This document shows, one piece after another, positions 14,185 through 60,096 of a DNA stretch of 64,000 nt. The stretch is from an uncultured Anaerotruncus sp. (GTDB lineage: Bacteria; Bacillota; Clostridia; Oscillospirales; CAG-272). Within the stretch, counting starts at the first letter, position 1, and each line of letters opens with the position of its first letter. The notes under the pieces were generated by a model that ran no database searches, was not told the origin of the DNA, and saw nothing but the letters and a program-made list of their open reading frames with translations. The stretch covers positions 1,910 to 65,909 of the forward strand of contig CAJLZE010000001.1 of assembly GCA_905210995.1 (NCBI GenBank), read 5' to 3'. The position numbers were made by a program, and so were the translations under genes.

Positions 14185-14468
14185 TCCTTTATCTCCTTCG
14201 GTGGGCTGCAAAAAGCATATCGGTCCCGGCGGAAGCATCACTTGTTTTTTGCGTTTTTCGTCCGGAACTCCTTCAGTCGGCTCCGCCGCCAGCTCCCTCG
14301 GCGAGGGAGCCTTGACAAGAGTCGCAGCCTCACCCGCATACCGGAACAATTCCTCATTCATTCGTGTCGGAGCACAAACGGTGAAATACGCACTCGCTTC
14401 GTAAGCCTCCCTCCCGAGGGAGGTGCCGGAGCTTGTCTCCGGCGGAAGGAGTTATTCTCCGTTCTCTG
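14185..14468. repeat. repeat-derived spacer or leader between rsmB and DUF559
   Basis: It contains two double-hairpin elements in opposite orientation (14266-14313 and 14407-14454), plus a partial copy of the CGGTGAA-type unit (about 14379-14400). Confidence 0.65.
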
Positions 14469-15836
14469 TCACGCGATATCACTCTTCACGAGTCTGCATA
14501 TGAAAAATCCGTCGGTGCCGAGCGGCATATCGGGTGTGAGGGTAAGCATTCCGTTCGGTGCAAAGGTGCCGTCGGGCAGAGTGAACGGATCGGCTCTGAA
14601 ATCGGGGTTTCCCTCAAGAAACGCCCCGACGACCTCCTCGTTCTCGCGCGGCAGCACGGTACAGGTGGAATAAACGAGCGTGCCGCCCGCCCTCAGCGCC
14701 TCGGCCGACGCCGAAAGTATCGCCTTTTGCAGCGCGGGCAGGTCGGCAGACTCCGCCGGCTCGCGATATCTTATCTCGGGCTTGCGGCGCACAGCCCCGT
14801 AGCCGGAGCACGGCACGTCGCAAAGCACGCAGTCGAACTTTTCTCCCTCCCACGGCGCAGACGAGTCGCGGCACACGGCGCGGATGATCGTGACGCCCTG
14901 CCTCGCGGCGCTCTTTTCAATGAGCGGGAGCCTGTTTTTATGCAGCTCGCAGGCGACTATCTCACCTCTGTCTTCCATTTCAAGCGCAGCCGAAATGCTT
15001 TTCGTTCCCGGCGCGGCGCAGGCGTCAAGCACCCGCTCTCCCGCCCGCGGGTCCAGCACCCACACGGCAAGCTGTGCGGCTTCATCCTCGGCAAACGCGG
15101 TCGGGGTGTCACCCGTAAGGCAGGCGGGAAGCCCCGCGCCCGACGTGCGTATGCCCCAAGGCGACGCGTCGGTGGGCTCCGCAGCGAAACCGGCAGCCTC
15201 AAGCTCTCGGCAAAGCCCGTCGCGCCCGGTGCGCGCGGTATTCACGCGCAGCGTGAGCGGAGGCGGCTCAAGGAACGCACGCAGCATATTCTCTGTGCGG
15301 CTCTCTCCGTAAGCAGCCAAAAGCTCGCGGCAAAGCGGTTCATTTACCGAATACCGCACCGAAAGATACCTTGCGGTCTTGTTTTTTCCGCCCTTTTCGG
15401 GGAACGGGAACTCCCCCTCCGCCACCGTGCGCTGATATGCGCGCAGGATGGCGTTGACGAACCCACGCGACGACTGCCGCGCAAGCGCCACCGTCTCGTT
15501 CACCGCGGCATGCGCGGGAATGCGGTCGCAGTATGCGAGCTGATATATTCCGAGACGCAGGATATTTTTCGTATCCGGGTCCGTTTTCGCCAGCGGGCGC
15601 GACGCCAGCCGTGCGATGATGTAATCAAGTGTTATCCGCCGCTCTGTCACGCCGCGCACAAGATACGCGGCAAGGGCGCGTTCTCCCTCGGGCAGCTCTC
15701 CGCTCTGCATAAGCGAATCGATAAGGATATTGCTGTATCCGCCGCCGTCGATGCGCAAAAGCAATCTCAGTGCCGCCGCCCGTGCGGTCGTTGCGGCACC
15801 GCGCCGTTCCTGCGGGGATCTTTTCGCTTTTTCCAT
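14469..15836 (-). CDS. rsmB: 16S rRNA (cytosine967-C5)-methyltransferase
   Basis: NusB-like N-terminus plus a SAM MTase with DACAAPGTK and the catalytic DVPCSG and TCT motifs. Confidence 0.9.
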   Translation of the reverse strand: MEKAKRSPQERRGAATTARAAALRLLLRIDGGGYSNILIDSLMQSGELPEGERALAAYLVRGVTERRITLDYIIARLASRPLAKTDPDTKNILRLGIYQLAYCDRIPAHAAVNETVALARQSSRGFVNAILRAYQRTVAEGEFPFPEKGGKNKTARYLSVRYSVNEPLCRELLAAYGESRTENMLRAFLEPPPLTLRVNTARTGRDGLCRELEAAGFAAEPTDASPWGIRTSGAGLPACLTGDTPTAFAEDEAAQLAVWVLDPRAGERVLDACAAPGTKSISAALEMEDRGEIVACELHKNRLPLIEKSAARQGVTIIRAVCRDSSAPWEGEKFDCVLCDVPCSGYGAVRRKPEIRYREPAESADLPALQKAILSASAEALRAGGTLVYSTCTVLPRENEEVVGAFLEGNPDFRADPFTLPDGTFAPNGMLTLTPDMPLGTDGFFICRLVKSDIA

Positions 15837-15843
15837 ATATTTT

Positions 15844-16572
15844 TCAGTCGCGTCTGCGGTTATTGCGCGACGACGCGATGAGTATGAGCCTTAAAAGCTG
15901 CAAGAGCGAGCCGGCAAGCGCCGCAAGATATGTCATGGCTGCGGCGGTGAGCACCTTTTTTGCCCCCGAGAGCTCCTCATCGGTAAAGCTGCCCGAGGCG
16001 CGCAGCGCCGTGAGCGCACGGCGGCTGGCGTTGACCTCGACGGGCAGTGTGACGAGCTGAAATAGCACGGCAAACGAAAACGCATATATACCGATCTGCA
16101 TCAGCCAATATCCGATCCCGCCGCCGGCGTCGGCGGCGGTATTGAAAACAAGTCCGAGCGCGAACAGCGGCCACGCAAGCTGCGACGCTATATTGCACAC
16201 GGGGATGATCGCCATTCTGAACTTTATCGGCGCGTACCCCTCGGCATACTGGAGCGCGTGTCCCGCCTCATGCGCGGCAACTCCAACCGCTGCGACGCTC
16301 GTTTTGTCGATAACGCCCTTCGAAAGGCTTATCACGTTGGTGCGCGGGTTATAATTATCGGTAAGCTCGCCCGATATGCCGACGATGCCGACATCGGTAA
16401 CGCCGCCCGAACGCAGCACGGTATCGGCAGCGCCCGCGCCGGTCATGCCGACTCTTGTCGGCACCTTTGAATATTTTGCATATGCGCTTTTTACCTTTAT
16501 CTGCGCCCAGAGCGAGATAAGGAACGCTATGATAACAAGGATATACGTCGGATCGTAAAAGAAAAACGGCAT
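15844..16572 (-). CDS. membrane zinc metallopeptidase (YugP-like)
   Basis: HEAGHALQ zinc motif, N- and C-terminal TM helices, 242 aa. Confidence 0.8.
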   Translation of the reverse strand: MPFFFYDPTYILVIIAFLISLWAQIKVKSAYAKYSKVPTRVGMTGAGAADTVLRSGGVTDVGIVGISGELTDNYNPRTNVISLSKGVIDKTSVAAVGVAAHEAGHALQYAEGYAPIKFRMAIIPVCNIASQLAWPLFALGLVFNTAADAGGGIGYWLMQIGIYAFSFAVLFQLVTLPVEVNASRRALTALRASGSFTDEELSGAKKVLTAAAMTYLAALAGSLLQLLRLILIASSRNNRRRD

Positions 16573-16595
16573 GGTTTTTTCCTTTCAGAAAAATT

Positions 16596-17543
16596 TCAGT
16601 TCAGTCTGTCTCCCAAGCTGACCTTTCTGCCGCGGATGAACTCCCCGGCACTCATTTTGCCCTTGCCCTCTGGCACTATGCGGGTAAGCACGAGCGCTCC
16701 CTCGCCGCATGCAACGGTGATGCCGCCGTCGCCGTGCGCGTCAAGCGCCGTAACGCATCCCGCCTCGCCCCCGGCGCTGCCGTCGGCAACGTGTGAGGCA
16801 ACGACCTTGAGGAGCTTTCCGTCCGGTGTATGTGTCCACGCGAGCGGCGCGGGCGAGCACCCGCGTATGAGATCGTGCAGCTCCGCAGCGGGGCGTGAAA
16901 AGTCGATGCGGAGGTCTTCTTTTCCGAGCTTTGCGGCGTATGTTGCACCCTCCTCCGGCTGAGGCGTACGCACGAGCGTTCCCGCCGTCAGTGCGTCGAG
17001 CGTCTCTGTCAGAAGCTCCGCTCCGACCTCCGCCATGCGGTCATGGACAGTTCCGAAGTCGTCCTCATCGCCAATCGGCACCTCGCGCACGAGCAGCATA
17101 TCGCCCGTGTCGATGCCGTCGTTCATATACATCGTTGTAATTCCCGTGACCTTTTTGCCGTCGATGACCGCGCGCTGCATAGGCGCGGCGCCGCGGTATT
17201 CGGGCAGGAGCGAACCGTGCACGTTTATACACCCGCAGGCAGGCAGCTCCAGCACCTCGGGCGGGAGTATCCTGCCGTACGCGGCGACAACGATGAGATT
17301 CGGCGCAAGTGTGCGCAGTATCTCAAGCGGTTCGGGTGCGCGCAGCGTTTTCGGCTGAAATACCGGAACGCCCATTTTCTCCGCCAGCACCTTAACGGGC
17401 GGCGGCGTCAGCTTATGCCCTCTGCCGGCGGGTTTATCCTCGCGCGTGAACACTCCGACGATCTTCGCGCCCGTTCTCTCCGCATATTTTCCGAGTGCGG
17501 CGAGAGACGCTGCTGCGAAATCCGGCGTGCCCATAAAGACCAT
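16596..17543 (-). CDS. fmt: methionyl-tRNA formyltransferase
   Basis: MVFMGTPDFA...INVHGSLLPEYRGAAP. The ATG at 17543 has GGGAG 9 nt upstream. The alternative ATG at 17597 overlaps the def stop and would add 18 aa. Confidence 0.9.
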   Translation of the reverse strand: MVFMGTPDFAAASLAALGKYAERTGAKIVGVFTREDKPAGRGHKLTPPPVKVLAEKMGVPVFQPKTLRAPEPLEILRTLAPNLIVVAAYGRILPPEVLELPACGCINVHGSLLPEYRGAAPMQRAVIDGKKVTGITTMYMNDGIDTGDMLLVREVPIGDEDDFGTVHDRMAEVGAELLTETLDALTAGTLVRTPQPEEGATYAAKLGKEDLRIDFSRPAAELHDLIRGCSPAPLAWTHTPDGKLLKVVASHVADGSAGGEAGCVTALDAHGDGGITVACGEGALVLTRIVPEGKGKMSAGEFIRGRKVSLGDRLN

Positions 17544-17593
17544 CCGCAGCGGCTCCCGCAGAGCCGGCACGGGGTATCTCACATCATTTTTCA

Positions 17594-18049
17594 TCATTTA
17601 TCTTCCATGCTTATGGCAATATCGGTATAGAGCTTGCCGTCAAGGTGATCTATCTCATGACAGAAGGCGCGTGCCAGCAGTCCCTCTCCGGTCATTTCGA
17701 ACGCTTTGCCGTCGCGTCCCGTGGCGCGCACGGTCACCTTCATCGGTCGGCGCACGATGCCCGATCTGCCGGGTATCGAAAGGCAGCCCTCGGGTCCCTC
17801 CTGCTCTCCCGCCTCGTAAATTATCTCGGGGTTTATGAGGAATATCGGGTGATCCTCCTCCACCTCGATAACGACCAGGCGGCGCAGCACGCCCACCTGC
17901 GGAGCCGCAAGCCCCACGCCGTCTGCCGCGCGCATTGTCTCGAGCATATCATCGAGCAGTTGCTGGATGCGCGGTGTAACTCTTTCTACCGGGCGGCTCG
18001 TCTGCCGCAGTGTCGGATCCTTATCCGTAATTATTTTTCTCTTAGCCAT
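17594..18049 (-). CDS. def: peptide deformylase
   Basis: GVGLAAPQVG, EGCLSIPG and HEIDHLDG motifs. Confidence 0.95.
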   Translation of the reverse strand: MAKRKIITDKDPTLRQTSRPVERVTPRIQQLLDDMLETMRAADGVGLAAPQVGVLRRLVVIEVEEDHPIFLINPEIIYEAGEQEGPEGCLSIPGRSGIVRRPMKVTVRATGRDGKAFEMTGEGLLARAFCHEIDHLDGKLYTDIAISMEDK

Positions 18050-18326
18050 ACAACTTATCCTTCTTTCTTTGATCTCGGGTGACGTTTGTGCAGACTCTGA
18101 GCTTCATACCCCGATGATGAAATAAGTACAGATTCATATCTGTTATGGAAATACAGTCACATCAAAACTTTATCACCGTATCCGTATGGGAGGGGCTCTG
18201 CTCCTCCCGCAAAGCATATGCAGACATCATTCACGGGAGTGGCGACCTCGGGCTTTGTCCGAGTTCATCCTCCACTACCGATACGGGAAAAATTTTGTTT
18301 CCGTCTGTTCCCGGCGGTGCGAGCCG
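18050..18326. repeat. intergenic repeat array (priA-def spacer)
   Basis: One full CTCGGGTG-N26-ACCCCGATGATGAA unit (18074-18121), a GGGAGGGGCTCTGCTCCTCCC hairpin (18188-18208), and the shared ACAGTCACATCA segment. The same modules occur at 43.1-43.4 kb and 59.3 kb. Confidence 0.75.
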
Positions 18327-20840: not shown

Positions 20841-20884
20841 GCGGATTCCTTTCGTTTACCGGGAAGTGTTGTGCGGGCGCCCCG

Positions 20885-25987: not shown

Positions 25988-26041
25988 CGTCCCCCCGCCT
26001 TTGGAACCGGCGAGCCGCGGTGACACGGACCGGCATTTTTG

Positions 26042-26083
26042 AAGGGCTGTTAAAAACAAATTGTTTTTGACAGCCCTTTTTTT
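26042..26083 (+). terminator. rho-independent terminator after spoIIR
   Basis: AAGGGCTGTTAAAAAC-aaatt-GTTTTTGACAGCCCTT followed by a T7 run. Confidence 0.7.
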
Positions 26084-43060: not shown

Positions 43061-43721
43061 TTTGTACCTCCGTATATTTTGCTCCCGACATGGTTAGCAC
43101 TTAACCGCGCGTCTCCCGGTCGTGATGAACGCAAGGCGCACGGTTAAATGCTGCCCACATGCGGGATTTTTTTAAGTCTCGGGTGGCGTTTATGCAGAGT
43201 TGTAACTGCACACCCCGACGGTGAAACAAGTGCGAACTCGTATCGACCGCACGGGTACAGTCACATCAGAACATAACCGACTTTTTAAGTCTCGGGTGGC
43301 GTTTATGCAGAGTTGCAGCCGCGTACCCCGACGGTGAAGCAAGTACAGACTCGTATCTGCCGCATCCCGTAGGGGAGGGGCTCTGCTCCTCCCGCAAAGC
43401 TTGCGCAAACTTCGGTCCCGGAAGGCAGCCACGCATTTTTAAGGTTTGTGCCGTGCGCGGTTAAACGCGGCGGGGAAATCAAACACACGGTACTGATGCA
43501 ACTCCACTCCCCGCCTATCATCGAGGTATAAAGCTCAAAATCCGATCCGGCTTCGCCCGGGTCCGAAAGCCCGATATAAATCAGCGCTTCCTTCATCATC
43601 GGGGTATAAAGCTCAAAATCCGATCCGGCTTCGCCCGAGTCCGAAAGCCCGATATAAATCAGCGCTCCCTTCATCATCGGGGTATGAAGTTCAAGATCCG
43701 ATCTGACTTCACCCGAGTCCG
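43061..43721. repeat. repeat-filled rpsO-pnp spacer
   Basis: Two direct units 113 bp apart (43174 and 43287), each with CTCGGGTG-N26-ACCCCGACGGTGAA. Three tandem 78-bp units of the same family in the opposite orientation lie at about 43510-43745. There is also a GGGAGGGGCTCTGCTCCTCCC hairpin (43373-43393) and CGCGCGGTTAA-type inverted repeats (43099-43145 and about 43455-43470). Confidence 0.8.
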
Positions 43722-43755
43722 AAAAAAGGGATGCCGTGCAAAAACGCGGCATCCC
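43722..43755 (-). terminator. rho-independent terminator of rpsO
   Basis: On the minus strand: GGGATGCCGCG-ttttt-GCACGGCATCCC followed by T6. Confidence 0.75.
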
Positions 43756-43776
43756 AGTCTCCATCGCCCTTGCTTT

Positions 43777-44919: not shown

Positions 44920-45040
44920 AAGCCCTGTTCTCCTTTTTTCCAAACCGTTTTGCCGCCAATAAAATCAAAAACATAACGTCCGGGAGCAAGACCGGCCGGG
45001 ACGGCATCAAAAACGCCGGGATCCGTGCCGGTATTTTTAA

Positions 45041-45075
45041 GGGGCTGTTAAAAACGCAAGGTTTTTAACAGCCCC
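45041..45075. terminator. hairpin downstream of tmk (possible terminator)
   Basis: GGGGCTGTTAAAAAC-gcaag-GTTTTTAACAGCCCC, a perfect 15-bp stem with no clean U-run. Confidence 0.4.
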
Positions 45076-45755: not shown

Positions 45756-46823
45756 TCAGTCTTTCTTTCTTCTGCAGACGCAGACAGCGGCGGGAATGAC
45801 AGCCGCGATAACGGCAAACGCCGCAGCGGACGAACCGCAGCCCTTCTTTTCGGGTGCAGCAGCGCTCGTCTCGGGAGCCTTGGTCTCGGGTGCTTTAGTC
45901 TCGGGAGCCTTGGTCTCGGGGGCTTTGGTCTCGGGAGCCTTGGTCTCGGTCGCAGTGGTCTCGGGAGCCTTGGTCTCGGGAGCCGCCGTGGTGACGTCGG
46001 CTATCGACTCGGCATTGGGAGTAACGGTGTCATTGCCCATCTTTGCGAGAGCAAGTATCTCGGTCTCGCTCAGAACTCTGTTGTAGATGCGCATATCGTC
46101 AAGGTAGCCCTCAAAGCCCGGGTACTTGCCGATCTCGTAGTGGTTGCCCACGGAAATGCCCTTGATCTGGATCGGCAGCGACTCGGAGTAGACCGCGCTG
46201 TCGGCAAGAGCGCCGTTGGCATAATATTTGATGGTGTTGGTGTTGTTGTCGTAGGTGATGGTGAAGAGGTTCCACTTGCCCGCCTCAAGCTGAGGAGTGC
46301 GATAGTGAGAGAACGCCTTCTCTTCGAACATACCGCCGGTCGGCGCCTTTGCGTTGCCGCTTATGCAGACCTGGCAGGAGCCGGGGAACTCGCCCCATAC
46401 AAACTGAAGGTGCATATCGCCGGGAGTCCACGACTGAGTGGTGAAGAAGTAACGGTTCTTGTCAGCAGATTCTGCGGGGAACTTGTCGGCATAGATCCAC
46501 ACGGAGTAGGTCATGGTAGTGAGATCTGCCAGCTTGCCGTTGAGAGCCTCCTCATAAGCCATAAGTGTGGTGTTGCCGTCAAAGTAAACGGCTTTGCCTA
46601 CGGGTCCGTCGCTCTGATAAGCAACGCCGACCATCTTTTCGAGGGGCACGGGGTTATCCTTTGCGGAGTCGGCAAAGGTCTGCGTTACGGGGTCGTAAAC
46701 ATCAAAGGTGTAGTAGGAGAGCAGGCCCTTTTCGAGATCGACCGCCGTATCGGTCGCAAATGTGGGAAGCGCAAATGCCGCGACCATGAGGACGGCAAGC
46801 GCGATAGCAAGTGTTTTTTTCAT
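45756..46823 (-). CDS. secreted LamG/concanavalin-like domain protein with an (ETKAP)n linker and a C-terminal membrane anchor
   Basis: Signal peptide, a LamG-type motif (GYLDDMRIYNRVLSETEI), the ETKAP repeats, and a terminal hydrophobic helix followed by RRKKD. Confidence 0.65.
   Translation of the reverse strand: MKKTLAIALAVLMVAAFALPTFATDTAVDLEKGLLSYYTFDVYDPVTQTFADSAKDNPVPLEKMVGVAYQSDGPVGKAVYFDGNTTLMAYEEALNGKLADLTTMTYSVWIYADKFPAESADKNRYFFTTQSWTPGDMHLQFVWGEFPGSCQVCISGNAKAPTGGMFEEKAFSHYRTPQLEAGKWNLFTITYDNNTNTIKYYANGALADSAVYSESLPIQIKGISVGNHYEIGKYPGFEGYLDDMRIYNRVLSETEILALAKMGNDTVTPNAESIADVTTAAPETKAPETTATETKAPETKAPETKAPETKAPETKAPETSAAAPEKKGCGSSAAAFAVIAAVIPAAVCVCRRKKD
45868..45987. repeat. 15-bp in-frame tandem repeat, about 8 copies, encoding (ETKAP)n
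   Basis: The unit GTCTCGGGNGCYTTG repeats head to tail within the LamG gene. Confidence 0.85.
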
Positions 46824-49501: not shown

Positions 49502-49681
49502 AACGCGGCAGGTGCCGATGCACCGCCCGAAAATATGATTCGTAAAGCAGGGTAAGCTCCGCTCCTCCCCTACGGCTGCGGTCGTGCGGCAAGCTGCCCC
49601 TTGCCATGGCTCACCCGGGAGAAAGTCGGGGCTGCCCCGTCATCACGGCGTTTCCGGCGCATTATTTTGTCGCATATGCAT

Positions 49682-49740: not shown

Positions 49741-49768
49741 TTGACAAACGCCGAATATGGTGTATAAT
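49741..49768 (+). promoter_or_regulatory. sigma-A type promoter (extended -10) for argG
   Basis: TTGACA, 16 nt, TGtATAAT. Confidence 0.6.
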
Positions 49769-49880
49769 TATGCACAGAAAGAGAACACGTCCGGAAGTCA
49801 CGCGGCTTTCGCCGCCGTGCGGCAGCGCTCGCGCTTCGCAAAATGCTCCGGATCCGCAAAGAAAGGCTATGGTCATAAAA

Positions 49881-51104: not shown

Positions 51105-51591
51105 AACCCGCCGGGCGATCCGAACGGAAGGAAGGTCAATAATGTGCGGGCGGTCTTCGCCGGGCAAAGCCCGGGCGAAGACCGGGACCGCCATTCCCGA
51201 AAGTATAATTCGGTAAAGCAGGGGAGGGGTCAAGCCCCTCCCCTACGGCAACAATCATAAAAAAGCAAAATGCCGCACCGTTTAAAACGACGCAGATTTT
51301 GCGGAAGGAAAAACGCGGAAGTACATGAAACATAACAGCAGCAGCGGAGCGGGATCTCCGCTTTCTCCGTCATCGGAATATAACGCCAAAACACCGTTGG
51401 GGTATGAAGCCCCCAACCCGTCCAAGCTCTCCGGCAGCAGTAGTTCAGACTCTGATCTCACTCCGCCGTCGGGGTATGACGCTCAAAACCCGCTCAAACA
51501 TTCCGGCATCGGCAGTTCAGGTTCTCCACTCGCTCCACCGTCGGGGTATAAAGCTCAAGCTCCGCAAAAAACCCACCCGAGTTTTAAAAAG
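51105..51591. repeat. repeat-filled argG-argH spacer
   Basis: GGGGAGGGG-tcaag-CCCCTCCCC hairpin followed by TACGG (51220-51248), and at least three tandem units with a period of about 72-73 bp (anchors 51393, 51466, 51538) of the YCGTYGGGGTAT...CACCCGAG type. Confidence 0.8.
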
Positions 51592-52965
51592 ATGTGGGAG
51601 GGGAGAACGGCGGGAAAAACCGACCCCGCGGCGGACGATTTCAATTCGTCGATAAGGTTTGACAGCAAAATGTACCGCCAGGACGTCCTCGGCAGCATGG
51701 CGCATGCCGCAATGCTCGGCGCACAGGGGATAATCCCGACGGCGGACGCCGAAAAGCTCGCGGAAGGGCTGGAGGGGATACTCAACGACCTCGACGCGGG
51801 AAAGCTTGAATTCGATCCCGCGGCGGAGGATATACATATGTTCGTCGAAACGGTGCTCACGGAGCGCATCGGCGACGTGGGTAAAAAGCTGCATACCGCA
51901 CGGAGCCGAAACGACCAGGTCGCACTTGACACGCGGATGTACCTGCGCGACGAGAGCGCGGATATCACAGCGCTTGTGCTCAGCCTTGTCGAAACGCTCT
52001 GCACCCGCGCAGCCGAAAACCGCGCAACGATAATGCCCGGATATACGCATATGCAGCGCGCACAGCCGGTGACGTTCGGACATCACCTGATGGCATACGC
52101 AATGATGCTTTTGCGCGACCTCGGCAGACTCGACGATTGCCGGAAGAGAATGAACGTGTCGCCGATAGGCTGCTGCGCGCTTGCGGGGACGACATACCCC
52201 GTTGACCGCCGCGCGGAGGCTGCATCTCTCGGCTTTGACGGTATCGCCATGAACAGTCTCGACGGCGTATCCGACCGCGACTATTGCGTTGAGCTCGCGT
52301 CGGCGATCTCGCTTATAATGATGCACCTCTCAAGGCTCTCGGAGGAGCTGGTACTGTGGTCAAGCTGGGAGTTCGGCTTTGTCGAGCTGTCCGACGCGTA
52401 CACGACAGGCTCGTCGATAATGCCGCAAAAGAAGAATCCCGACATGGCGGAGCTTATACGCGGCAAGACCGGACGCGTTTTCGGCGACCTTATGGCGCTG
52501 CTGACCGTCCTCAAGGGGCTCCCTCTCGCATATAACAAGGATATGCAGGAGGATAAGGAAAATATCTTTGACGCGACCGAAACGGTGAAGGCGTGCCTGC
52601 CCGTTATGGATTCCATGATCGCCACGATGACGGTGAAGCCCGACGCGATGAAGCGCGCCGCGCAAAAGGGATTTATCAACGCGACGGACCTTGCCGACTA
52701 CCTCACAAAGAAAGGCCTGCCCTTCCGTGCGGCATATAAGCTGTCGGGCGAGCTTGTGGCACGCTGCCTGAAGGAGGGAAAGGTGCTCGAGGAGCTGCCG
52801 CTTGAGGTCTACCGCGAGTACAGCGAGCTGTTTGACGGCGACCTTTATGCCGCCATCGACCTCGACGCCTGCGTCGCAAAGCGCGCGTCCGAGGGGGGAA
52901 CATCGCCCGAATCGGTGGACGCACAGATAAAATACGTAAAGGAAACGCTCGCGGCGCTGAAATGA
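51592..52965 (+). CDS. argH: argininosuccinate lyase
   Basis: MWEGRTAG...SIRFD...GSMAHAAML and the fumarate-lyase signature GSSIMPQKKNPD. The start at 51592 is chosen by homology. The 89 upstream in-frame codons are repeat sequence. Confidence 0.9.
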   Translation: MWEGRTAGKTDPAADDFNSSIRFDSKMYRQDVLGSMAHAAMLGAQGIIPTADAEKLAEGLEGILNDLDAGKLEFDPAAEDIHMFVETVLTERIGDVGKKLHTARSRNDQVALDTRMYLRDESADITALVLSLVETLCTRAAENRATIMPGYTHMQRAQPVTFGHHLMAYAMMLLRDLGRLDDCRKRMNVSPIGCCALAGTTYPVDRRAEAASLGFDGIAMNSLDGVSDRDYCVELASAISLIMMHLSRLSEELVLWSSWEFGFVELSDAYTTGSSIMPQKKNPDMAELIRGKTGRVFGDLMALLTVLKGLPLAYNKDMQEDKENIFDATETVKACLPVMDSMIATMTVKPDAMKRAAQKGFINATDLADYLTKKGLPFRAAYKLSGELVARCLKEGKVLEELPLEVYREYSELFDGDLYAAIDLDACVAKRASEGGTSPESVDAQIKYVKETLAALK

Positions 52966-53062: not shown

Positions 53063-53135
53063 ATTCGAAGCAGAGTCGGAGTGCCGCGCGCACGCGCGGC
53101 ATTTCAGGCTCAATAAATCCCCGAGAGGTCGCATC

Positions 53136-54185: not shown

Positions 54186-54216
54186 AAAGGTAAGCCGGAT
54201 CCGGTAAAATACAGCA

Positions 54217-54249
54217 GCAAAGCCCTCGGACAACGTCCGAGGGCTTTGC
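54217..54249. terminator. hairpin between convergent genes (bidirectional terminator candidate)
   Basis: GCAAAGCCCTCGGAC-aac-GTCCGAGGGCTTTGC, a perfect 15-bp stem. Confidence 0.6.
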
Positions 54250-54289
54250 TGACGCAAATAATAAGGCAGAGGATAAGAGATGTCGTGCC

Positions 54290-54565
54290 TCACCCGGATA
54301 TCAGATAACCGGAGGAGGCGAGAGAGGCGGAGAAGCTGCGGTAAGCAGCAAGAGCCTCGTCGCGCGATATGCCGTATTCGGCAACGGCGGCAGCCACTAT
54401 GCCCTCGCCGTCAAGCCCGCGCTCGAAAAGACGCCAGAAAAAAACGCCGGTGGCGTTTATTTTTTTTACATACGGCACCTTGCCGCGCGCCTCGCCTGTC
54501 GCGATCATAAGATGCTCGTCGCAAACATCAACGATCACCACACCCGGGCAAACATGATATTTCAT
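54290..54565 (-). CDS. PqqD-family (RiPP recognition element-like) small protein
   Basis: 91 aa. The pattern ...VIVDVCDEHLMI...INATGVFFWRLFERGLDGEGIVAAAVAEYGISRDEALAAYRSFSASLASSGYL fits the size and helix pattern of PqqD/RRE proteins. The ATG at 54565 overlaps the upstream stop (ATGA); the track start at 54577 is a GTG. Confidence 0.6.
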   Translation of the reverse strand: MKYHVCPGVVIVDVCDEHLMIATGEARGKVPYVKKINATGVFFWRLFERGLDGEGIVAAAVAEYGISRDEALAAYRSFSASLASSGYLISG

Positions 54566-55284: not shown

Positions 55285-55316
55285 GCCGTCATCCTCCGTC
55301 CTTTGCCGTTTGTCCT

Positions 55317-55511
55317 TCAGAAAACATCTCCCGAGGACGTGAGAGTGACCTTGGTGCCGTCGGGCAGGGTAAAGTCCTTCGGTATCGGATCGCCGCCCTC
55401 TCCGATGTCTCCGCTGCCGGTCGTGATGCCGCCGGCAAGCATATCATCAAGCTTGTCGTATATCTCGTCTCCGCCGCCGGAGACCGCAGGAATATCAAAA
55501 GTGTTATTCAT
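55317..55511 (-). CDS. 64-aa acidic Gly-rich peptide (candidate precursor or substrate peptide)
   Basis: MNNTFDIPAVSGGGDEIYDKLDDMLAGGITTGSGDIGEGGDPIPKDFTLPDGTKVTLTSSGDVF. AAAGGAG lies 8 nt upstream of the ATG at 55511. It sits between the vWA gene and the kinase-like gene with gaps of 37 and 32 nt. Confidence 0.5.
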   Translation of the reverse strand: MNNTFDIPAVSGGGDEIYDKLDDMLAGGITTGSGDIGEGGDPIPKDFTLPDGTKVTLTSSGDVF

Positions 55512-55548
55512 GGATAAACTCCTTTCCATTCTTCCCGGCCGAGCCTAC

Positions 55549-58500
55549 TCAGCCCTCAACGCGGTAAGGGTAGCAAATGAGGGTGCGCGTCGCACCGAGG
55601 ACGGTCGTGCCGTCGTGCGTGACCCAATAGGGCGTCACCTCGACCGGAGTTCCGCCAGAGCTGCCGCTCACCGAGTATCTCACGCTCATCACGGCAGCCC
55701 CGCGGCTGACATCTCTGCCGAACAGCGCACGAGCACCGAAACGGGCGACGTCGGCTGCGGGAGTCTTTTTGCCGTTGATGATAAATCCGAGCTCGGCATA
55801 GTCGGTGCTGTCGGCAGCCGCCATGAGCGTCAGCCCGCGCACACGGAAGAGCCCGTTTTTGGTGTATCTGACGTCAAGATAAGAATCGCTCACGTATTTG
55901 GCGTATACGGTGATGTCGGAGGTCACATTGCGAAGATCGGCGGGGTATTTGCAGGCTTTATCGGTAAACCAACCGGCAAAGAGCTTGCCGCTCGCGCCGG
56001 CATAGCTTATCGCAGCCGAAACATCGCCCTTTGCCGCAACGACGCTGCGCGTGCTGCCGCCGTCGTTGACGGTGACGGTCACATAATCGGCAGCTCCGCT
56101 GTCAAGCGTGTACGAGGCGGAATATATCAGCGACCGCGCATCCGTCGGCACGGTATATCCGGTACATTTACTGCGTGCAAACGTATCGGCACCCGCCTTG
56201 CCGAGCTTTTTGTAGGTCAGATCATTGTCGGAGCCTGCGCCCTTGTACTCGCAGGTGCGCGTTCCTATGCCCGTGACCTTTACACCGTCAAGGGTGATCC
56301 AGTAGGGCGTGAACACGATCCTGTCGTCCGCTTTTGTCCAATAATTCTTCGGAACATCAAAGCAGAAAAGATACCCGCTGTCTTTGATGTCGCCGAATAT
56401 GCCCGTGCCCGCCGCATATACGGACTCGGTGCCGTTGTTGTGCTTTACCGTAAGCGACTTGTAAACGCTGCCGACCGTAAGAGCGTTGGGATCCGCCTCG
56501 CCGACGTCGTGAGCATCGATCACCGTGCCGTTTTCGGTATGCGCATCAAAGCCGACGCCGTAATAATTCAGGCGATCGACCGCGCTCATCATGTAGAAGC
56601 CGATAACGTCAACATCGCTCTCGCTCACGTGCTTCCACACGCTCAGGCTGCGCGGCAGCAGATATACCGCGGGAGCCTCCCAGATATAATAGATGCCGCC
56701 CGGCGTGGGGGTAAAGTCCATTGCCGTACCGCCGTTGAAGTCGGCGACCGTCGTATAATCGCTTTTGAACGTTCCGCCGTAAACAAAGTGCCCGTCGGTG
56801 ATCTTGGTTCCGTCGGCTTTTTTGTTCACCCACTGCGTCATGTCAAAGTTCGCGCCGAAGGCGTGAGTATCGCGCCAAACCTCCGTGTCCTCCCGCACAT
56901 GAACGACGGTGAATTCCTGCTTATATGCAAACCATACATGGCGGTTGGAGTTTGCGGCGGTCAGTGTGACCTCCGCGGAATCGCCCCCCGTGAGCGCACC
57001 GTTGTCGATAATATAACTGCCGTAATAAACGCAGTCGGCAACGTCTGCCTTGCCTACGGTGTAGAGCGTGTTATATTTCAGCCCCGTGGTGCCGTCGACC
57101 GCGAAATATTCGGCATCCTTTACCTGTTTCGCAAGGGAGGGGGACTCTACCTTGACGCCGTTCTCGTTGATCGGTTCGCCGTTTCCGTTTACAAGGTAGT
57201 AGTGGACAAGTATTTTGCCGCCGCCCACGGTGACCTGAGGCTTCGGGAATTCGCCGGTCACCTCTTTGTCCTCGTAGTCAGTATATGTCAGCGTAGCGCT
57301 TTCGTTTGTGAGCAGAGTCTCGCCGGTCGCGGGGCTGTAGCCATCCCTGACCGTGACCTTATACATGAGCGTGGGATCGTCGCCCTCTCTGACGTTGCCG
57401 ACCGTCCAGCTTATGCTGCGGGTGGCAGCGTCATATGTCGCCGTGCCCTGGCTGATGTAAACATCGGCATCGCCCGCATCATAGACCGCCCTGTCGGTGG
57501 TGATGACGGGAGCCTCTCCCGAAAAGCTGAGCTGAACTTTATCGCCCATGGTGTCGTTTACGACCGCGTTTTTCGCCGCGATCGCAATGCTGCCCGCGAT
57601 GGAGGTGAACGCCGTCGTCAGCTTTTCTTCAATATTGTCGGCGTCGGCTATCGTAAAGTAGTCCTTTGAGGGGTTCGTGGCGCAGGAGCGGAGAATTCCG
57701 GAGCCCACGTTGCCCGCCTGAAGAGCAATTGAATAAATATTAACGCCTTCCGCTTTCGCCTGATCTGCCTCCCATACAGTCGGCTCTCCCAGGTTATTCA
57801 CCGTCATTTTCGCTGTAAAGGCGGTGGAAAACTCAATACTTCCAACAGAATACCCGCTTATCTCCCCCGTGGAATTTTTGCTGCCGTTCGACCGGTTCTC
57901 ATCTATGCTGTAATTCCATGTTTTTGACGAAATGACGGAATGGCTGCAACTCCACGAACCGCTTATCTTGTCATGGTTGAAATATGCCGGAGACTGTACC
58001 GTGTAGCTGGTGGTGTAATCCTGCGTCTCCCCGTTTCCTACCATTGACGTATAATCGCACCCGGCTATCGCAGCGGTATATGACGGAGATACAGTTATCG
58101 TCGGAGTTCTATGAGAACCCAGGCCGCAATTTGATTCGATATTCACATTCACCGACGTCACTGTTGCCGAAACCGCATTGACCTTAAATGATTTAGTAGG
58201 CAGACCGTCGCTTAGCAAAACAATATTTTTGTTTTTTCCGGTAGAAGCCTCGGACTTCAGAATATCACGCGCAGTCTTGATGCCCAACTGGGTAAATGTG
58301 CCGCCGTTTTCCTTGTCAACGGAAATTTCGTCTATCCGCGCCTTCAGAGCTTCTTTATCTTCATAAGTATAAAACCCCGTGTGCGTTTCCTCAAGGTTAA
58401 ATACAACAAGCGCGATCCGTGTCGCGCTGTCTGTGGTCAGCAGCTTATCGGCAAAAGCCTTGGCTGCGAGCTTGGTCTTGTACATACGGCTGCTCTCATC

Positions 58501-58815
58501 CTCGACATATGAAGTGCCGCCAAAAAACGTACTTTTCTTGGTGTACATACTGTTCGAGTTGTCTATGACCAGCACGACGTCCGAGGTGGTCTTATAGTTC
58601 TTTCCCTGTATACCGAGGGTGACCTCCCAGAGGTTGTCGTCCTCGCCGCCGACCGCCTTGGCATCCTTTTCGAGCTTCACCGAGCCCTCGGCAGGCCAGA
58701 CCGGCTGCGTATCGGCTTCGCCTTCCGCAAACACCGCGAGAGGCATCGCCGCAAGCATTGACAGCACCGTTAGCGCCGCAAGCAGCACGGACAGCGCACG
58801 CTTGAATCTCATCAT
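55549..58815 (-). CDS. secreted von Willebrand factor A (MIDAS) domain surface protein with Ig-like and Listeria-Bacteroides-type repeats
   Basis: Signal peptide. The vWA domain has MIDAS DNSNSM...GGTFT...LLSDG. A Flg_new-like FAGWFTDKACKYPADLRNVTSDITVYAKY motif is present, and TPYW(I/V)T.DG..V.G..RT is repeated. No LPXTG motif or TM tail. GGAGGAG SD. Confidence 0.8.
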   Translation of the reverse strand: MMRFKRALSVLLAALTVLSMLAAMPLAVFAEGEADTQPVWPAEGSVKLEKDAKAVGGEDDNLWEVTLGIQGKNYKTTSDVVLVIDNSNSMYTKKSTFFGGTSYVEDESSRMYKTKLAAKAFADKLLTTDSATRIALVVFNLEETHTGFYTYEDKEALKARIDEISVDKENGGTFTQLGIKTARDILKSEASTGKNKNIVLLSDGLPTKSFKVNAVSATVTSVNVNIESNCGLGSHRTPTITVSPSYTAAIAGCDYTSMVGNGETQDYTTSYTVQSPAYFNHDKISGSWSCSHSVISSKTWNYSIDENRSNGSKNSTGEISGYSVGSIEFSTAFTAKMTVNNLGEPTVWEADQAKAEGVNIYSIALQAGNVGSGILRSCATNPSKDYFTIADADNIEEKLTTAFTSIAGSIAIAAKNAVVNDTMGDKVQLSFSGEAPVITTDRAVYDAGDADVYISQGTATYDAATRSISWTVGNVREGDDPTLMYKVTVRDGYSPATGETLLTNESATLTYTDYEDKEVTGEFPKPQVTVGGGKILVHYYLVNGNGEPINENGVKVESPSLAKQVKDAEYFAVDGTTGLKYNTLYTVGKADVADCVYYGSYIIDNGALTGGDSAEVTLTAANSNRHVWFAYKQEFTVVHVREDTEVWRDTHAFGANFDMTQWVNKKADGTKITDGHFVYGGTFKSDYTTVADFNGGTAMDFTPTPGGIYYIWEAPAVYLLPRSLSVWKHVSESDVDVIGFYMMSAVDRLNYYGVGFDAHTENGTVIDAHDVGEADPNALTVGSVYKSLTVKHNNGTESVYAAGTGIFGDIKDSGYLFCFDVPKNYWTKADDRIVFTPYWITLDGVKVTGIGTRTCEYKGAGSDNDLTYKKLGKAGADTFARSKCTGYTVPTDARSLIYSASYTLDSGAADYVTVTVNDGGSTRSVVAAKGDVSAAISYAGASGKLFAGWFTDKACKYPADLRNVTSDITVYAKYVSDSYLDVRYTKNGLFRVRGLTLMAAADSTDYAELGFIINGKKTPAADVARFGARALFGRDVSRGAAVMSVRYSVSGSSGGTPVEVTPYWVTHDGTTVLGATRTLICYPYRVEG

Positions 58816-59177
58816 CTTGAACTCCTCCTATGTAAAATAAAAAGTAATACATTTCGCGCGGAACGCAAGCATTGATATCTTTTATATTATATATACCGCT
58901 ACAATGCAGAAAATACATTATGGGTGCTCAAATAGTAAATGTATCCATCGGGTTCCGTGCTACTCATTATACTACAAACCAAACAAAATTGCAATACCTT
59001 CCCAAGGATTTTGTTGGATAATTCATAACTTAAGATTTATTTTAAAGCTGTATCACCCATTTGTTATATCAGAAACGGATTTGACTCTTGTTTTATGCTG
59101 TTTTGTATTGCACATCCATTTTTTCGACTCCCATGTGTCTTATTAATGAACACATATATAATATATGACACCGGATA

Positions 59178-60096
59178 TTATTTTGCGTATACACATACGG
59201 ACTTTTTTGACCGACATAGCGACGCCAAACACACGCAGCCATAAATCGCACCACCCGCAATCAAGACTTGATAATGTATGGTAAGGTGAGCGCGGGTGAA
59301 ACCCGGGGTCGCTTCTCCCGTGAAACGAGTACAGATTTCATTCACTATAATAAGTAGGGGAGGGGCTCTGCTCCTCCCGATAAAATTTGAACAAACTCCA
59401 ACGGCGGGAGGGGTAAACCCCTCCCCTACGGCAGTACCCATGTAGTATGTTTAAAGTCTGAAACCTTGCCAAGGCTCCCTCCTGAGGGAGCTGTCGCCGA
59501 AGGCGACTGAGGGAGTAAAATTCATTAAAATAAAAGGAAGATCCCGCTGCGGCGGGATCTTTTTTACCACCTCATCCGCCGCGCTCGCGGGATTGAATTT
59601 TTTAGTTTTTACGCAATGCGTAAAAACATAGCGCGGCAATGATCGATGTTTCCTGCACGCCTTTATCCCGCGCCGCAGCACCTTCCCAAACTTGGGAAGG
59701 CTCACAGAACCGTATCTTCCGTCGATCACGGTGAAGAAAGCAAAACGATCCTGTTTTTGATTTTGCCGGCTTACTGAAGTTCATTTCTCACTTTACATCC
59801 GTTGACGGAACGTCATTTAACGGCAGCCTTCCCGTGTCCGGGAAGGTGGTGCCGTAGGCGCCGGATGAGGAGGACAAGAGGTTTTGCCACAGGCAAAACC
59901 TACCGAATCAATGTAGGGGAGTGGCAAGCCCCTCCCGTACGGCAGTACCCATGTAGTAGATTTAAAGTCTGAAGCCTTGCCAAGGCTCCCTCAAGAGGGG
60001 GCTGTCGCCGCAGGCGGCTGAGCGAGTAAAATCGAAGCACTGGAGAGCGGCAGTGAAGCTTAATACGACTCCGGCTTTTCGGTATTTTCATCATTT
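59178..60096. repeat. 0.9-kb composite intergenic repeat array
   Basis: A direct repeat of about 120 bp (59406-59525 and 59914-60034, which I estimate at close to 90% identical). GGGAGGGG hairpins at 59358-59378, 59406-59425 and about 59914-59936. Double-hairpin SD-like elements at 59464-59517, 59826-59875 and 59975-60028. Further perfect hairpins at 59546-59573, 59605-59628, 59681-59703 and 59881-59900. Confidence 0.75.

Follow-up and report, generated by a model that had tools for sequence, protein, structure and literature searches.

The intergenic spacers of this Clostridia genome from the human gut carry three kinds of short repeat DNA, termed M1, M2, and M3, which are unrelated to one another and do not form a single modular hairpin family. 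In its proteins, the source species is identical to Anaerotruncus sp. CAG:390. In the window, the whole stretch of 64,000 nucleotides that was analysed, all three occur far above chance, and outside argH every copy is intergenic (Table 1). When the six spacers were compared with the whole window by blastn, significant repeat matches were confined to the remaining spacers. The original prediction had proposed one family of modules. Their mosaic arrangement was borne out, as were REP/BIME-like interspersed intergenic repeats inside normally tight operons (priA-def, rpsO-pnp, and argG-argH). The single family was not, because the distributions differ widely: M1 is found in about seven species, M2 in many metagenomes, and M3 in 92 IMG/VR stretches and in none of 29 M1-bearing loci from relatives.

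It is probable (roughly 60 %) that non-autonomous repeats of three origins share these spacers and that they influence the host as a side effect. Three independent families would have piled up, adjacent to and nested within each other, and this would give the semblance of one modular family. Such effects may include changes in how structured or stable the mRNA of operon spacers is, the donation of stop codons or RBS-like ends at the edges of genes, and a gain of coding sequence by argH. The repeat mosaic is real; most of it is genomic clutter of a familiar sort, and two of its twists are new.

Table 1. Repeats and associated genes in the window
Feature	Position	Strand	Evidence and remarks
DUF559 (Vsr-like PD-(D/E)XK) endonuclease gene	13804-14184	-	Pfam PF04480, E 3e-27
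M3, ~80 nt upstream of DUF559 ORF, same strand	14262-14317	-	CM R1 56.8 bits, E 1e-14
M3 variant, inverted relative to 14262-14317	14399-14457	+	CM R1 38.8 bits, E 2e-9
Full M1 unit (about 113 nt), priA-def spacer	18064-18176	-	nhmmer E 9e-27; pattern match 18074-18121
M2 hairpin, GTATGGGAGGGG-CTCTG-CTCCTCCC	18184-18209		find_repeats family D7; strict pattern
Two head-to-tail M1 units, period 113 nt, pnp 5′ region	43167-43368	-	nhmmer E 3e-25, 5e-19
M2 hairpin, GTAG + GGGAGGGG/CTCCTCCC, apex region of rpsO-pnp inverted arrays	43369-43394		
Three tandem 78-nt units with M1 core	43517-43727	+	find_repeats family D4; nhmmer
Degenerate M2	49526-49576		5′ flank in common with copy 51196-51249; blastn 80 % over 54 nt, E 2e-6
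M2 hairpin, GGGAGGGG-TCAAG-CCCCTCCC then CTACGG, 3′ of argG stop codon	51218-51250		
Extended argH ORF, 546 aa	51325-52965	+	First 89 codons repeat-derived
Three 72-nt M1-derived units	51365-51591	+	find_repeats families D2, D8; nhmmer E 1.5e-13, 1.5e-8
Degenerate mosaic piece	59285-59350	-	Resembles 5′ part of M1 unit, also GGGAG..GCGAC-CYCGGG segment of priA-def spacer; by-eye comparison
Two inverted M2 hairpins, REPIN-like doublet, GTAG...CTAC tetranucleotides outermost	59354-59431		
M3, best copy of the window	59467-59521	+	CM R1 61.9 bits, E 4e-16
Diverged M3-like double hairpin	59826-59875	+	Seen by eye; no CM R1 match
M2, one arm mismatch (GGGAGTGG)	59915-59944		In second 116-nt M2+M3 composite
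M3, second 116-nt M2+M3 composite	59978-60032	+	CM R1 44.2 bits, E 6e-11

M1 had been described as a module with conserved ends around a 26-nt variable core; it makes up the core of a longer, 111-115-nt unit (about 112 nt), defined from 55 full-length copies, with the layout ATGTTCnGATGTAACT ... AGAT ... CACCATCGGGGTAT-N24-CACCCGAG-nTnAAAAAA. The M1 pattern has six matches in the window versus 0.00 expected (100 shuffles). All five copies listed previously (18074-18121, 43178-43225, 43291-43338, 43592-43639, and 51534-51581, the last with one mismatch to the pattern) were recovered, together with an additional one at 43670-43717, and an HMM built from relatives identified eight units or part-units in the window. 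There are 107 HMM matches in the 251 kb made up of the window and 29 MAG loci. The units form head-to-tail arrays with tandem periods of 111-113 nt, some arrays facing each other, and are dispersed over many intergenic sites, limited to about seven related uncultured Oscillospiraceae-like Clostridia MAG species; pattern matches in other genomes are lone chance matches in high-GC genomes. No mobilising enzyme, target-site duplication, empty site, or parent IS was found for M1, and its copy number may change through replication slippage or unequal recombination.

Hairpin formation, predicted for the modules in general, holds for the M2 palindrome and the M3 double hairpin. M1 has no conserved RNA fold of its own and is not hairpin-forming alone. 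Its own pairing consists of an invariant 5-bp TCGGG/CCCGA stem, there are no covarying pairs between copies, the mean folding z-score is -0.75 on both strands, and its orientation relative to the downstream gene is unbiased (48 same, 45 opposite). The suggestion that M1 is a structured RNA module was thus not upheld.

Differences between strains in insertion or copy number, proposed earlier as a check, are present in the rpsO-pnp arrays. Within the species, ten independent assemblies have spacers of 539 to 949 bp here, which differ mostly by whole 78-nt or 113-nt units, and in one assembly (L002) part of the non-repeat centre is also missing. Sense M1 copies before pnp number from one to at least three across strains (L010, L003, L008), and the 78-nt units from two to at least five. 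The 113-nt units are oriented as pnp, the upstream one being 5′-truncated and fused to M2, and the 78-nt units are antisense to the rpsO-pnp transcript. The predicted fold of the spacer RNA, in which antisense 43517-43727 pairs with sense 43167-43368, is far more structured than shuffles (z = -6.6); from such facing arrays, the transcript would form a long imperfect duplex. The priA-def spacer, in which the A-rich 3′ end of M1 is 15 nt ahead of the def start codon, is a constant 277 nt in 10 strains. Diversity among the strains is low (pi ~0.001).

The modules had been placed only between genes. This holds outside argH; the ORF that contains the M1 copies of argH is probably translated, judging from the position of the SD and ATG and the preservation of frame. 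These units are in frame with argH and end at the conserved MWEGR motif, the reading frame continues without a stop through 85 codons upstream, and Pfam Lyase_1 begins at residue 93 of the extended protein. The gene caller selects a short form starting at 51592 (457 aa), and this is the form called in metagenomes. The argH genes of relatives have SD-supported long forms with one to three full in-frame M1 units as an N-terminal extension. In L068, L241, and L245, GGAGGaaaaATGATG is located about 38 nt past argG and is followed by 1, 2, or 3 such units, with HMM E values of 1e-18 to 1e-25; here the TAA of GATGTAACT has become GAA or AAT. In L101, the conserved WxGR motif lacks an ATG. The M1 of argH no longer has its in-frame stop and is probably translated as an extension of tandem peptides.

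M2 is a REP-type element, made up of GTAG and a GC palindrome, at times as an inverted doublet. There are four strict M2 hairpins in the window (0.01 expected), to which blastn adds copies at 59404-59431 and 59915-59944 and the degenerate 49526-49576. The M2+M3 composite is present in two copies (family D5, 89 % over 116 nt). Nothing tested supports the earlier reading of the palindrome as SD and anti-SD arms. More than 120 metagenome stretches, differing greatly in GC content (0.37-0.74), carry the same hairpin, in many cases as an inverted doublet, and M2-type hairpins span soil, marine, and gut metagenomes. Three M2-bearing metagenome stretches contain RAYT-like ORFs, representing two distinct loci because L295 and L362 are the same locus. 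These ORFs match NF047646 (E 7.6e-16 and 1.5e-10, below the NCBIfam curated cutoff), the top PDB match is 4ER8 TnpArep, and Pfam gave no match. By analogy, a Y1 transposase of the RAYT type may mobilise M2 through its single-stranded hairpins.

M3 is a structurally constrained double hairpin. A covariance model (CM R1) built solely from unrelated IMG/VR copies recovered four of the copies listed previously (E from 4e-16 to 2e-9); the fifth, at 59826-59875, was seen by eye only, its arms being CCTTCCCG/CGGGAAGG and GGTGCC/GGCGCC, followed by GAGGAGG. Both hairpins of the copy at 14399-14457 have compensatory changes (CCTCCCTC/GAGGGAGG; GCCGGAG/CTCCGGC), and the copy at 59467-59521 is 17 nt ahead of a bidirectional terminator (59538-59561). 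M3 is widespread in the viral contigs of IMG/VR, with 153 copies across the 92 stretches. The middle segment forms a hairpin in 67 out of 67 distinct versions, and hairpin 2 has compensatory changes at all six pairs (113 cells). Compensatory change in stems, another check proposed earlier, supports M3, alone among the three kinds, and not M1. There was no match to M3 in Rfam.

A possible link between M3 and DUF559 is the most novel lead. The DUF559 gene of the window is inserted between rsmB and a radical-SAM gene in all nine strains read, and belongs to a family whose 3′ ends are M3. The tails of the homologues, ...KASLREGGG or ...LSRLRRQLPPGGS, are M3 read in either direction; the DUF559 stop codon is inside M3 in L140, M3 is within about 10 nt past the stop in L135 and L136, and inverted M3 copies are found downstream. 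No DUF559 gene adjoins M3 in IMG/VR (0 of about 146 copies), and the link could therefore be one-way capture. M3 may be a REP-like element, with spread relying on its hairpins. That copies might be fragments of protein-coding genes, raised in the original prediction as an objection, is partly the case, M3 being a DUF559 3′ end and M1 probably being coding in argH.

It is possible, although unlikely, that the host retains the modules as structured RNA elements acting in cis (leaders, stabilisers, or processing sites) to tune its operons, for example in RNase III or PNPase control of pnp or in decoupling of argG and argH. Strong covariation in the M3 stems and the structured rpsO-pnp spacer RNA are consistent with this, as are the A-rich 3′ end of M1 1-15 nt from start codons at several loci and, in L093, an M1 end that gives GAGG about 8 nt ahead of ATG. 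M1 is also at the same position, directly 5′ of pnp and of argH, in three species each, and several of its blocks are >90 % conserved across species that are ~85 % identical in pnp, both of which could mean host function rather than neutrality. However, M1 lacks covarying pairs and a stable fold and is equally common in both orientations, copy number varies freely from strain to strain, the adjoining genes are unrelated in function, and there is no Rfam match. Likewise, M3 is in either orientation within co-directional gene clusters (L144), and G-U pairs are nearly missing from its stems (2 of about 500 cells), for which a DNA-level or two-strand constraint is a better fit than one on RNA only.

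M1 arrays could instead be arrays of sites for a host or element-encoded DNA-binding protein (iteron-like, nucleoid-organising, or recombinase), with conservation due to protein recognition and not mobility. The blocks ATGTTC, AGAT, CACCATCGGGGTAT, and CACCCGAG, conserved or forced by the search pattern, keep the same distances from one another in all species while the sequence separating them varies, two related half-sites, TCACC(AT)CGGGG and TCACCCGAG, can be read about 36 nt apart, and independence of gene orientation also suits a role at the DNA level. This is nevertheless very unlikely, given that no recurrent gene adjoins M1, that strains differ in copy number, that units are tolerated within coding sequence, and that part of the conservation, in CAYCRTCGGGGT and CRCCCGAG, was imposed by the search pattern in about half of the copies. 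Least likely of all, and highly improbable, is that the repeats are decayed or active coding sequence, with M1 as a peptide-repeat cassette (SGYxAQNP...HPSxKK) and M3 as what is left of DUF559 genes. The argH units are in frame with sizes that are multiples of 3 nt (72, 111, 114), the 78-nt units are open in the same frame, M3 encodes the conserved DUF559 tail, and a possible DUF559 3′-end remnant can be read ahead of the M3 at 14399-14457. Most canonical M1 units, however, have a 112-113-nt period and contain stops, either within the core or in frame 14 codons before SGY (ATG-TAA or ATG-TGA), and substitutions between copies have no third-codon-position excess. The 78-nt array lacks a start codon and runs antisense to an operon, and no DUF559 homology adjoins about 146 copies of M3.

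The three kinds of repeat have parallels in several known systems. As in REP/REPIN elements with RAYT and in BIMEs of Enterobacteria and Pseudomonas, M2 has a 5′ GTAG and then a 20-25-nt GC-rich palindrome, is extragenic, and occurs as inverted doublets and in operon spacers, with RAYT-like ORFs alongside in two metagenome loci. M3 resembles BIMEs in its clusters of three to four mixed-orientation copies between operon genes (L144), and its position around a small nuclease gene recalls that of REPs around RAYT genes. However, the host here is from the Clostridia, a RAYT for M2 is proposed by analogy, and M2 and M3 sequences are unrelated to the REPs of E. coli or Pseudomonas. M3 also differs in being a double hairpin that has a second occurrence of the hairpin 1 3′ arm (GAGGGAG) and no GTAG, and in that the associated gene encodes a PD-(D/E)XK (DUF559) nuclease and not an HUH Y1 transposase.

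M1 is more like the BOX elements of Streptococcus pneumoniae and the STAR repeats of Staphylococcus aureus, being a Firmicutes intergenic repeat with a tandem internal unit and strain-variable copy number, found within operons and near gene starts. It is unrelated to them in sequence, and differs in the absence of boxA/boxC-like terminal modules and of a stable predicted fold, and in its longer unit of 112 nt, compared with 45 nt for boxB. Like MITEs, the repeats are small, non-coding, dispersed, and intergenic, and M1 arrays that face each other look like long terminal inverted repeats, although a single M1 unit has none and neither a target-site duplication nor a parent IS was found. Short repeats inside ORFs are known for RPE in Rickettsia and for enterobacterial RU/ERIC (PMC2759123). 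M1 in argH is similar, with one to three units in frame in a housekeeping gene, probably adding peptide without destroying the enzyme. Unlike these elements, M1 is non-palindromic, and forms an N-terminal tandem array, probably translated, of variable copy number among relatives.

Within the degenerate mosaic piece, 59299-59324 has a weak blastn match to 18255-18230 (E 0.07).

The repeats in the window are real, and it is most likely that three independent non-autonomous families have accumulated in the same permissive spacers: M1, the core of a 111-115-nt unit, M2, a REP-type hairpin, and M3, a double hairpin. Six matches to the M1 pattern are present in the window against 0.00 expected, and four copies of the strict M2 hairpin against 0.01. 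A covariance model made from foreign M3 copies only finds four window copies (E 4e-16 to 2e-9), and when the six spacers are compared with the window by blastn, significant matches are confined to the spacers themselves. The original prediction of a REP/BIME-like kind of element is supported; that of a single hairpin-forming family of modules is not. Its copy lists require two changes, one M1 copy having been overlooked and one M3 copy being merely a diverged relative. Def and S15 of the window are identical to Anaerotruncus sp. CAG:390 proteins CDE03459.1 and CDE03602.1, and these exact sequences are in ~2,000 blocks of human-gut assemblies. The GC content of the window is ~0.58. By Pfam, the repeats lie in the spacers of familiar operons, listed below. 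A scan for tRNA and tmRNA genes found none.

Features of the window, with positions, strand where assigned, and basis or remark
Feature	Position	Strand	Basis or remark
Repeat-bearing spacer, priA / def-fmt			Pfam
Repeat-bearing spacer, rsmB / DUF559 / radical-SAM gene			Pfam
Repeat-bearing spacer, rpsO / pnp			Pfam
Repeat-bearing spacer, argG / argH			Pfam
Repeat-bearing region	58.8-60.1 kb		1.3-kb stretch, gene-poor, low-GC
DUF559 gene	13804-14184	-	
M1 copy, previously overlooked	43670-43717		
M2 copies with GTAG	43369, 51218-51250, 59354, 59404-59431, 59915		CTAC on other strand
M2 copy with GTAT	18184		GTAT in place of GTAG
Inverted M2 doublet	59354-59431		GTAG tetranucleotides outermost
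Diverged M3 relative	59826-59875		
True terminators beside repeats, the second bidirectional	43722-43750, 59538-59561		
RsmY-like Rfam match	59485-59561	+	3′ half of M3 plus terminator
pnp start	43060		
pnp leader hairpin	43085-43155	-	directly upstream of pnp start
ORF called in rpsO-pnp spacer	43303-43764	-	
Sigma-70 promoter and argG leader	49741-49869		TTGACA-N17-TATAAT
argG start (ATG)	49869		
Start of argH extension (ATG)	51325		weak SD
61-nt segments	26016-26076, 45014-45074		77 % alike
Tandem 15-nt units	45838-46013		nine units
355-aa ORF	45756-46823	-	Laminin_G_3, metagenome gene calls

A scan of the GTDB representative genomes with the M1 pattern, CAYCRTCGGGGT-N26-CRCCCGAG, returned 106 stretches. 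Genuine copies, several per genome and with homologous flanks, were found in only ~7 uncultured Clostridia MAG species of GC 0.50-0.56, labelled Anaerotruncus sp., Ruminococcus sp., Eubacteriales, and Clostridia HGM12681; the other matches are single chance matches in high-GC genomes. The best identity between these loci and the window is ~85 %. Alignment of the copies with their flanks gives a unit of 111-115 nt, aATGTTCnGATGTAACT-(variable)-AGGnAGATAnGAATCTGnnnTTCTnCACCATCGGGGTATGAAGnTCAGAnTnnGCAnAAACGnCACCCGAGnnTAAAAAAA, and an HMM of this unit has 107 matches in 251 kb, 55 of them full length. Units follow one another head to tail every 111-113 nt, and facing arrays with their A-rich ends outward are frequent, as in the rpsO-pnp spacer of the window and in the retrieved loci L057, L072, L073, and L105 (L-numbers are same-species strains, related MAGs, and metagenome or IMG/VR stretches). 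Assemblies are interrupted by these repeats, with the ends of several MAG contigs falling within M1 units (L046, L079) and N-gaps inside the arrays of L006, L008, and L094. The window's own species gave no match in the representative-genome scan, for which such assembly breaks may be the reason.

Between ten independent same-species assemblies, the rpsO-pnp spacer is 539, 603, 716, 794, 892, or 949 bp long. These differences are mostly whole 78-nt units (two to at least five) or 113-nt units (one to at least three), and in L002 some of the non-repeat centre is missing too. All 10 strains compared at priA-def have a spacer of 277 nt, and all 5 compared at argG-argH have one of 487 nt. Single-unit sites are invariant, and no polymorphism was found at priA-def, argG-argH, or rsmB-DUF559 among the strains compared. 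Based on the unit-wise differences at rpsO-pnp and the invariant single-unit sites, the variation is therefore array expansion and contraction. No fresh M1 insertion was observed among these strains, and their SNPs are too few for the diversity test to show constraint. BLAST of an M1 array against plasmid and phage collections gave no match, and IMG/VR searched with the M1 and M2 patterns gave chance-like matches only. Clustering of the ORFs beside M1 arrays, in search of a mobilizing gene, recovered syntenic orthologues only, and among the neighbours no gene was seen to recur.

In at least 15 cases (for example L096 at ~3766, L032 at ~1866, L052, L084, L105, and L098), a convergent ORF enters the A-rich 3′ end of an M1 unit by 5-36 nt and stops there, often after 17-18 nt, at a TGA of the reverse-complemented GTCACCC; the neighbouring gene therefore takes its final codons and its stop from M1. 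The repeats also generate spurious ORF calls. A 90-175-aa 'protein' is called over the 78-nt array between rpsO and pnp, in the window and at 4289-4816 in L001-L010; its length tracks the repeat copy number, its start is inside the rpsO terminator, and it is almost certainly spurious.

Several known classes of element were considered for M1. The original prediction included M1 among its hairpins, and covariation in the stems was one point on which this could be judged. RNAalifold of 30 units recovers only an invariant 5-bp TCGGG/CCCGA stem with no covarying pairs, no stacked covarying helix emerges when all column pairs are scanned, and the mean MFE z-score of 55 units is -0.75 against dinucleotide shuffles, on both strands. 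On the tests applied, M1 does not qualify as a structured RNA. Candidate helices identified by eye (GAATCTG/CAGAATC; GGAAGAT/ATCTTCT; CTR..YAG) are lineage-specific or inconsistent. A cis-regulatory RNA is likewise rejected on the lack of covarying pairs and on orientation, which is the same as that of the downstream gene in 48 cases and opposed in 45, and thus shows no bias. Variable tandem unit number is a feature shared with BOX elements, but distinct terminal modules and a stable RNA fold are not present. Nor does M1 have the terminal inverted repeats and target-site duplication of a MITE, since its ends, ATGTTC and CACCCGAGnTnAAAAAA, are non-complementary and no duplicated flanks are seen in 55 aligned units. 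A tRNA origin was considered on the likeness of GGGGTAT..AGCTCAG to the 5′ end of a tRNA and rejected, as M1 has no cloverleaf and ARAGORN gives no match. A sigma-70 promoter is rejected too, since TTGACA-N17-GATATT is limited to a subset of the 'Ruminococcus sp.' MAG copies and is unconserved.

An intrinsic terminator is not supported for any of the three repeats, as M1 ends in an A-run and neither M2 nor M3 is followed by a T-run. Neither M1 nor M3 is a known Rfam family; there are no matches at the gathering threshold in the window and the M3-rich loci, and nothing relevant at an E-value threshold. The RsmY-like match scores 27.8 bits against a gathering score of 57 (E 0.008) and is most likely a chance resemblance of GGA-rich hairpins and a terminator. 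The CUGAUGAG of some M3 loops was considered as a hammerhead core and rejected, since there is no stem II and no GAAA arrangement.

M2 is GGGAGGGG-N4-5-C(Y)CCTCCC, with an 8-bp stem, and together with its foot reads (C)GTAG + GGGAGGGG-loop-CCCCTCCC. It is, as REP sequences are, a short (20-40 nt), imperfect, GC-rich palindrome. In the RAYT (REP-associated tyrosine transposase) literature, GTAG at the 5′ foot is a defining feature of REPs, and this conserved tetranucleotide is found at the foot of M2. Like REPs, M2 is extragenic, with all of the 5-7 copies in the 64-kb window lying in spacers, and one inverted doublet in the window and many in metagenome matches are as expected of REPINs. M2 is absent from 179 kb of the relatives' M1-bearing loci. 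Using the pattern GGGAGGRG-N4-5-CCCCTCCCCTAC, the metagenome matches listed include more than 120 stretches with an M2-type hairpin, of GC 0.37-0.74, from soil, sediment, marine, and gut sources, with many inverted doublets (for example L251, L257, L276, L312, and L326) and some tandem runs. Among these listed matches, only L364 has an M1 unit together with the hairpin.

Clustering of ORFs from the listed M2 metagenome loci identified a RAYT-like family in L269, L295, and L362; L295 and L362 are the same locus, leaving two distinct RAYT-like loci. These ORFs are beside or around the M2-type hairpin in L269 and L362, match NCBIfam NF047646 'REP-associated tyrosine transposase' below its 80-bit cutoff (E 1.5e-10 and 7.6e-16, respectively), have TnpArep 4ER8 as best PDB match (E 0.03), and have no match in Pfam. 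Their position by M2-type hairpins fits the REP/RAYT model, and by analogy M2 of the window genome probably depends on a RAYT. Both ORFs (L269, 6053-6769; L362, 1222-1746) hold their own REP hairpin, GTAGGGGAGGGG...CCCCTCCC, in the reading frame, and a further copy lies at the gene border. The NCBIfam match of the L269 ORF is in two separate stretches.

M3 was sought with the degenerate pattern GGCTCCCTC-N2-6-GAGGGAGC-N12-26-TGAGGGAG, which fixes hairpin 1 and leaves hairpin 2 free, and 153 copies were found in 92 IMG/VR stretches. All 67 distinct middle segments fold as a hairpin, with a stem that varies from copy to copy. In an alignment of 84 sequences, all six pairs of hairpin 2 are changed on both sides, in 113 cells; 90 % of the cells are paired, compared with 36-52 % when the partner column is slid, and none of 500 shuffles reaches the observed value. 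The window variants of hairpin 1, CCTCCCTC/GAGGGAGG and CCTTCCCG/CGGGAAGG, are also compensatory. The stems of M3 are therefore kept by compensatory changes, as in REP-like structured elements, and the covariation that failed to appear for M1 is present here. G-U pairs are nearly absent from the stems, and G·A and tandem GA mismatches recur. M3 thus has a covariation-supported structure that is not in Rfam. In L144, clusters of three or four copies in mixed orientation are between co-directional genes. BLAST of M3 against plasmid and phage collections returned only unannotated faecal phage contigs in GenBank, and no M3 was found in the M1-bearing MAG loci. A crude ORF call placed many IMG/VR copies 'inside' ORFs; this result was discarded because long spurious ORFs are common at 56-66 % GC.

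A sense M3 lies ~80 nt upstream of the DUF559 gene of the window, which encodes a member of a Vsr-like PD-(D/E)XK endonuclease domain family, and farther out is an inverted M3. The extended DUF559 ORF, used as query, retrieved 4,015 homologues, many on contigs of <3 kb, in clusters of up to 1,664 members. Of 56 short forms, approximately 30 have ...VKASLREGGG... or something very similar as their end, and several others terminate directly after KASL; some long forms continue into ...LSRLRRQLPPGGSLW. Both tails are M3 translated, in one direction or the other. In L140, the gene ends in GGCTCCCTCCGGGAGGGAGCTCCCGCCGCAGGCGGGTGAGGGAG, where the TGA of TGAGGGAG is the stop codon, and in L135 and L136 a similar M3 starts at most ~10 nt past the stop codon. 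One to several inverted M3-like copies are downstream of the gene end in all three loci. No DUF559 gene was found beside ~146 IMG/VR M3 copies, no DUF559 relative was confirmed in IMG/VR by the related-locus search, and the DUF559 gene of the window is fixed at its own site in 9 out of 9 strains.

The likeness to RAYT genes flanked by their own REPs is suggestive but unproven; the literature search found no description of an association between M3 and DUF559. The nuclease gene may carry its own M3 as its 3′ end, followed by inverted copies, and the nuclease may mobilize or home into the solo M3 of IMG/VR contigs and DUF559-bearing Clostridia loci. A ~40-bp duplication of the upstream gene's 3′ end, including its stop codon, is present in L140 at 1160-1200 and 1722-1765, bracketing a ~520-bp cassette of DUF559 and M3, which suggests insertion by a copy-and-paste or homing-like event. 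Upstream of the gene after this cassette there is a T-box leader match (L140, 1952-2169; 59.8 bits, gathering score 93).

At argH, M1 is within an open reading frame. Canonical M1 units have a frame of ...SP-SGY-x-AQN-...-HPSxKK that is closed 14 codons upstream, where GATGTRACT holds ATG-TAA or ATG-TGA. The unit adjoining argH ends exactly at the conserved LWGGR-type motif. The window has MWEGR there and L068 has MWAGR; L101 has IWVGR, with no ATG at the motif. In each of the three species, 58-85 codons upstream of the motif are free of stops, 85 in the window. In L068, L241, and L245, GGAGGaaaaATGATG is ~38 nt after argG and is followed by one, two, or three full M1 units (HMM E 1e-18 to 1e-25). 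These units are 111 or 114 nt long and carry GAA or AAT in place of TAA. L241 and L245 have an SD and ATG, then two or three HMM-positive units, then an intact Lyase_1 domain. As with RPE elements, the unit is within the ORF, the frame is kept, and the domains are intact. For these loci the called proteins are long forms, P0003 (563 aa, 196 members, also in NCBI), P0002 (597 aa), and P0007 (517 aa), with repeats that read DVQMEHSGVSGSDSALSSQSGYAAANPQKLHPSIKK; proteins from relatives further away have 457-459 aa and begin with MSKLWAGR. The window extension has three 72-nt derived units, and gene callers took the short form there. Predicted M1-derived peptides include SGYDAQNPLK and DVQMEHSGVSGSDSALSSQSGYAAANPQK. 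These sequences lead to the conclusion that, in this clade, the argH reading frame has come to include M1, which would be translated there.

Two proposals are made jointly, with a probability of approximately one in four and thus tentatively: that M1 is a novel repeat, specific to Oscillospiraceae, which the essential ArgH can recruit as a peptide array of variable length at its N-terminus, and that M3 and the DUF559 endonuclease form a REP/RAYT-like partnership with a different nuclease superfamily. Within the wider account of three families, M1 array copy number would shift between strains through slippage or unequal recombination, M2 spread is probably RAYT-dependent, and M3 spread would depend on its own hairpins, possibly with DUF559. 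Effects on the host would be secondary: a long RNA duplex at rpsO-pnp, sequences at gene borders, and the ArgH extension.

To our knowledge, short interspersed repeats have been much studied in Proteobacteria and a few pathogens, and scarcely in uncultured gut Clostridia. Uncultured Clostridia dominate the human gut, and the repeats described here alter operon spacer length between strains and, in argH, would add a variable peptide array to an enzyme. M1 arrays could act as strain-typing markers for a prevalent gut species. The in-frame M1 arrays of argH and the link between M3 and DUF559 are the two leads worth pursuit, the latter offering a large domain family of unknown function a role that can be tested.

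Further features were observed in the window. The two 61-nt segments have GGGCTGTTAAAAAC...GTTTTTAACAGCCC hairpins at gene ends and may be a fourth small repeat or a common bidirectional terminator type. The 15-nt units, which are GTCTCGGGAGCCTTG-like and lie within the 355-aa ORF, would encode a 5-residue peptide repeat linker. The sigma-70 promoter is perfect and is followed by a ~100-nt leader before argG. The first ATG of the argG ORF is not the real start, and the product of 411 aa is recorded in 86 blocks.

The 716-nt rpsO-pnp spacer RNA has a predicted fold of -296 kcal/mol (z = -6.6), in which antisense 78-nt units pair with sense 113-nt units through conserved blocks and M2 is near the apex. 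Based on this model, the duplex may affect processing or stability. The leader of pnp has a long, near-perfect hairpin with arms GCATTTAACCGTGCGC ... GCGCGCGGTTAAGTGC, enclosed by CCCGCATGTGGGCAGC / CATGTCGGGAG, which is conserved in the related species L094 and L107 and presumably resembles the RNase III / PNPase autoregulation stem of E. coli pnp.
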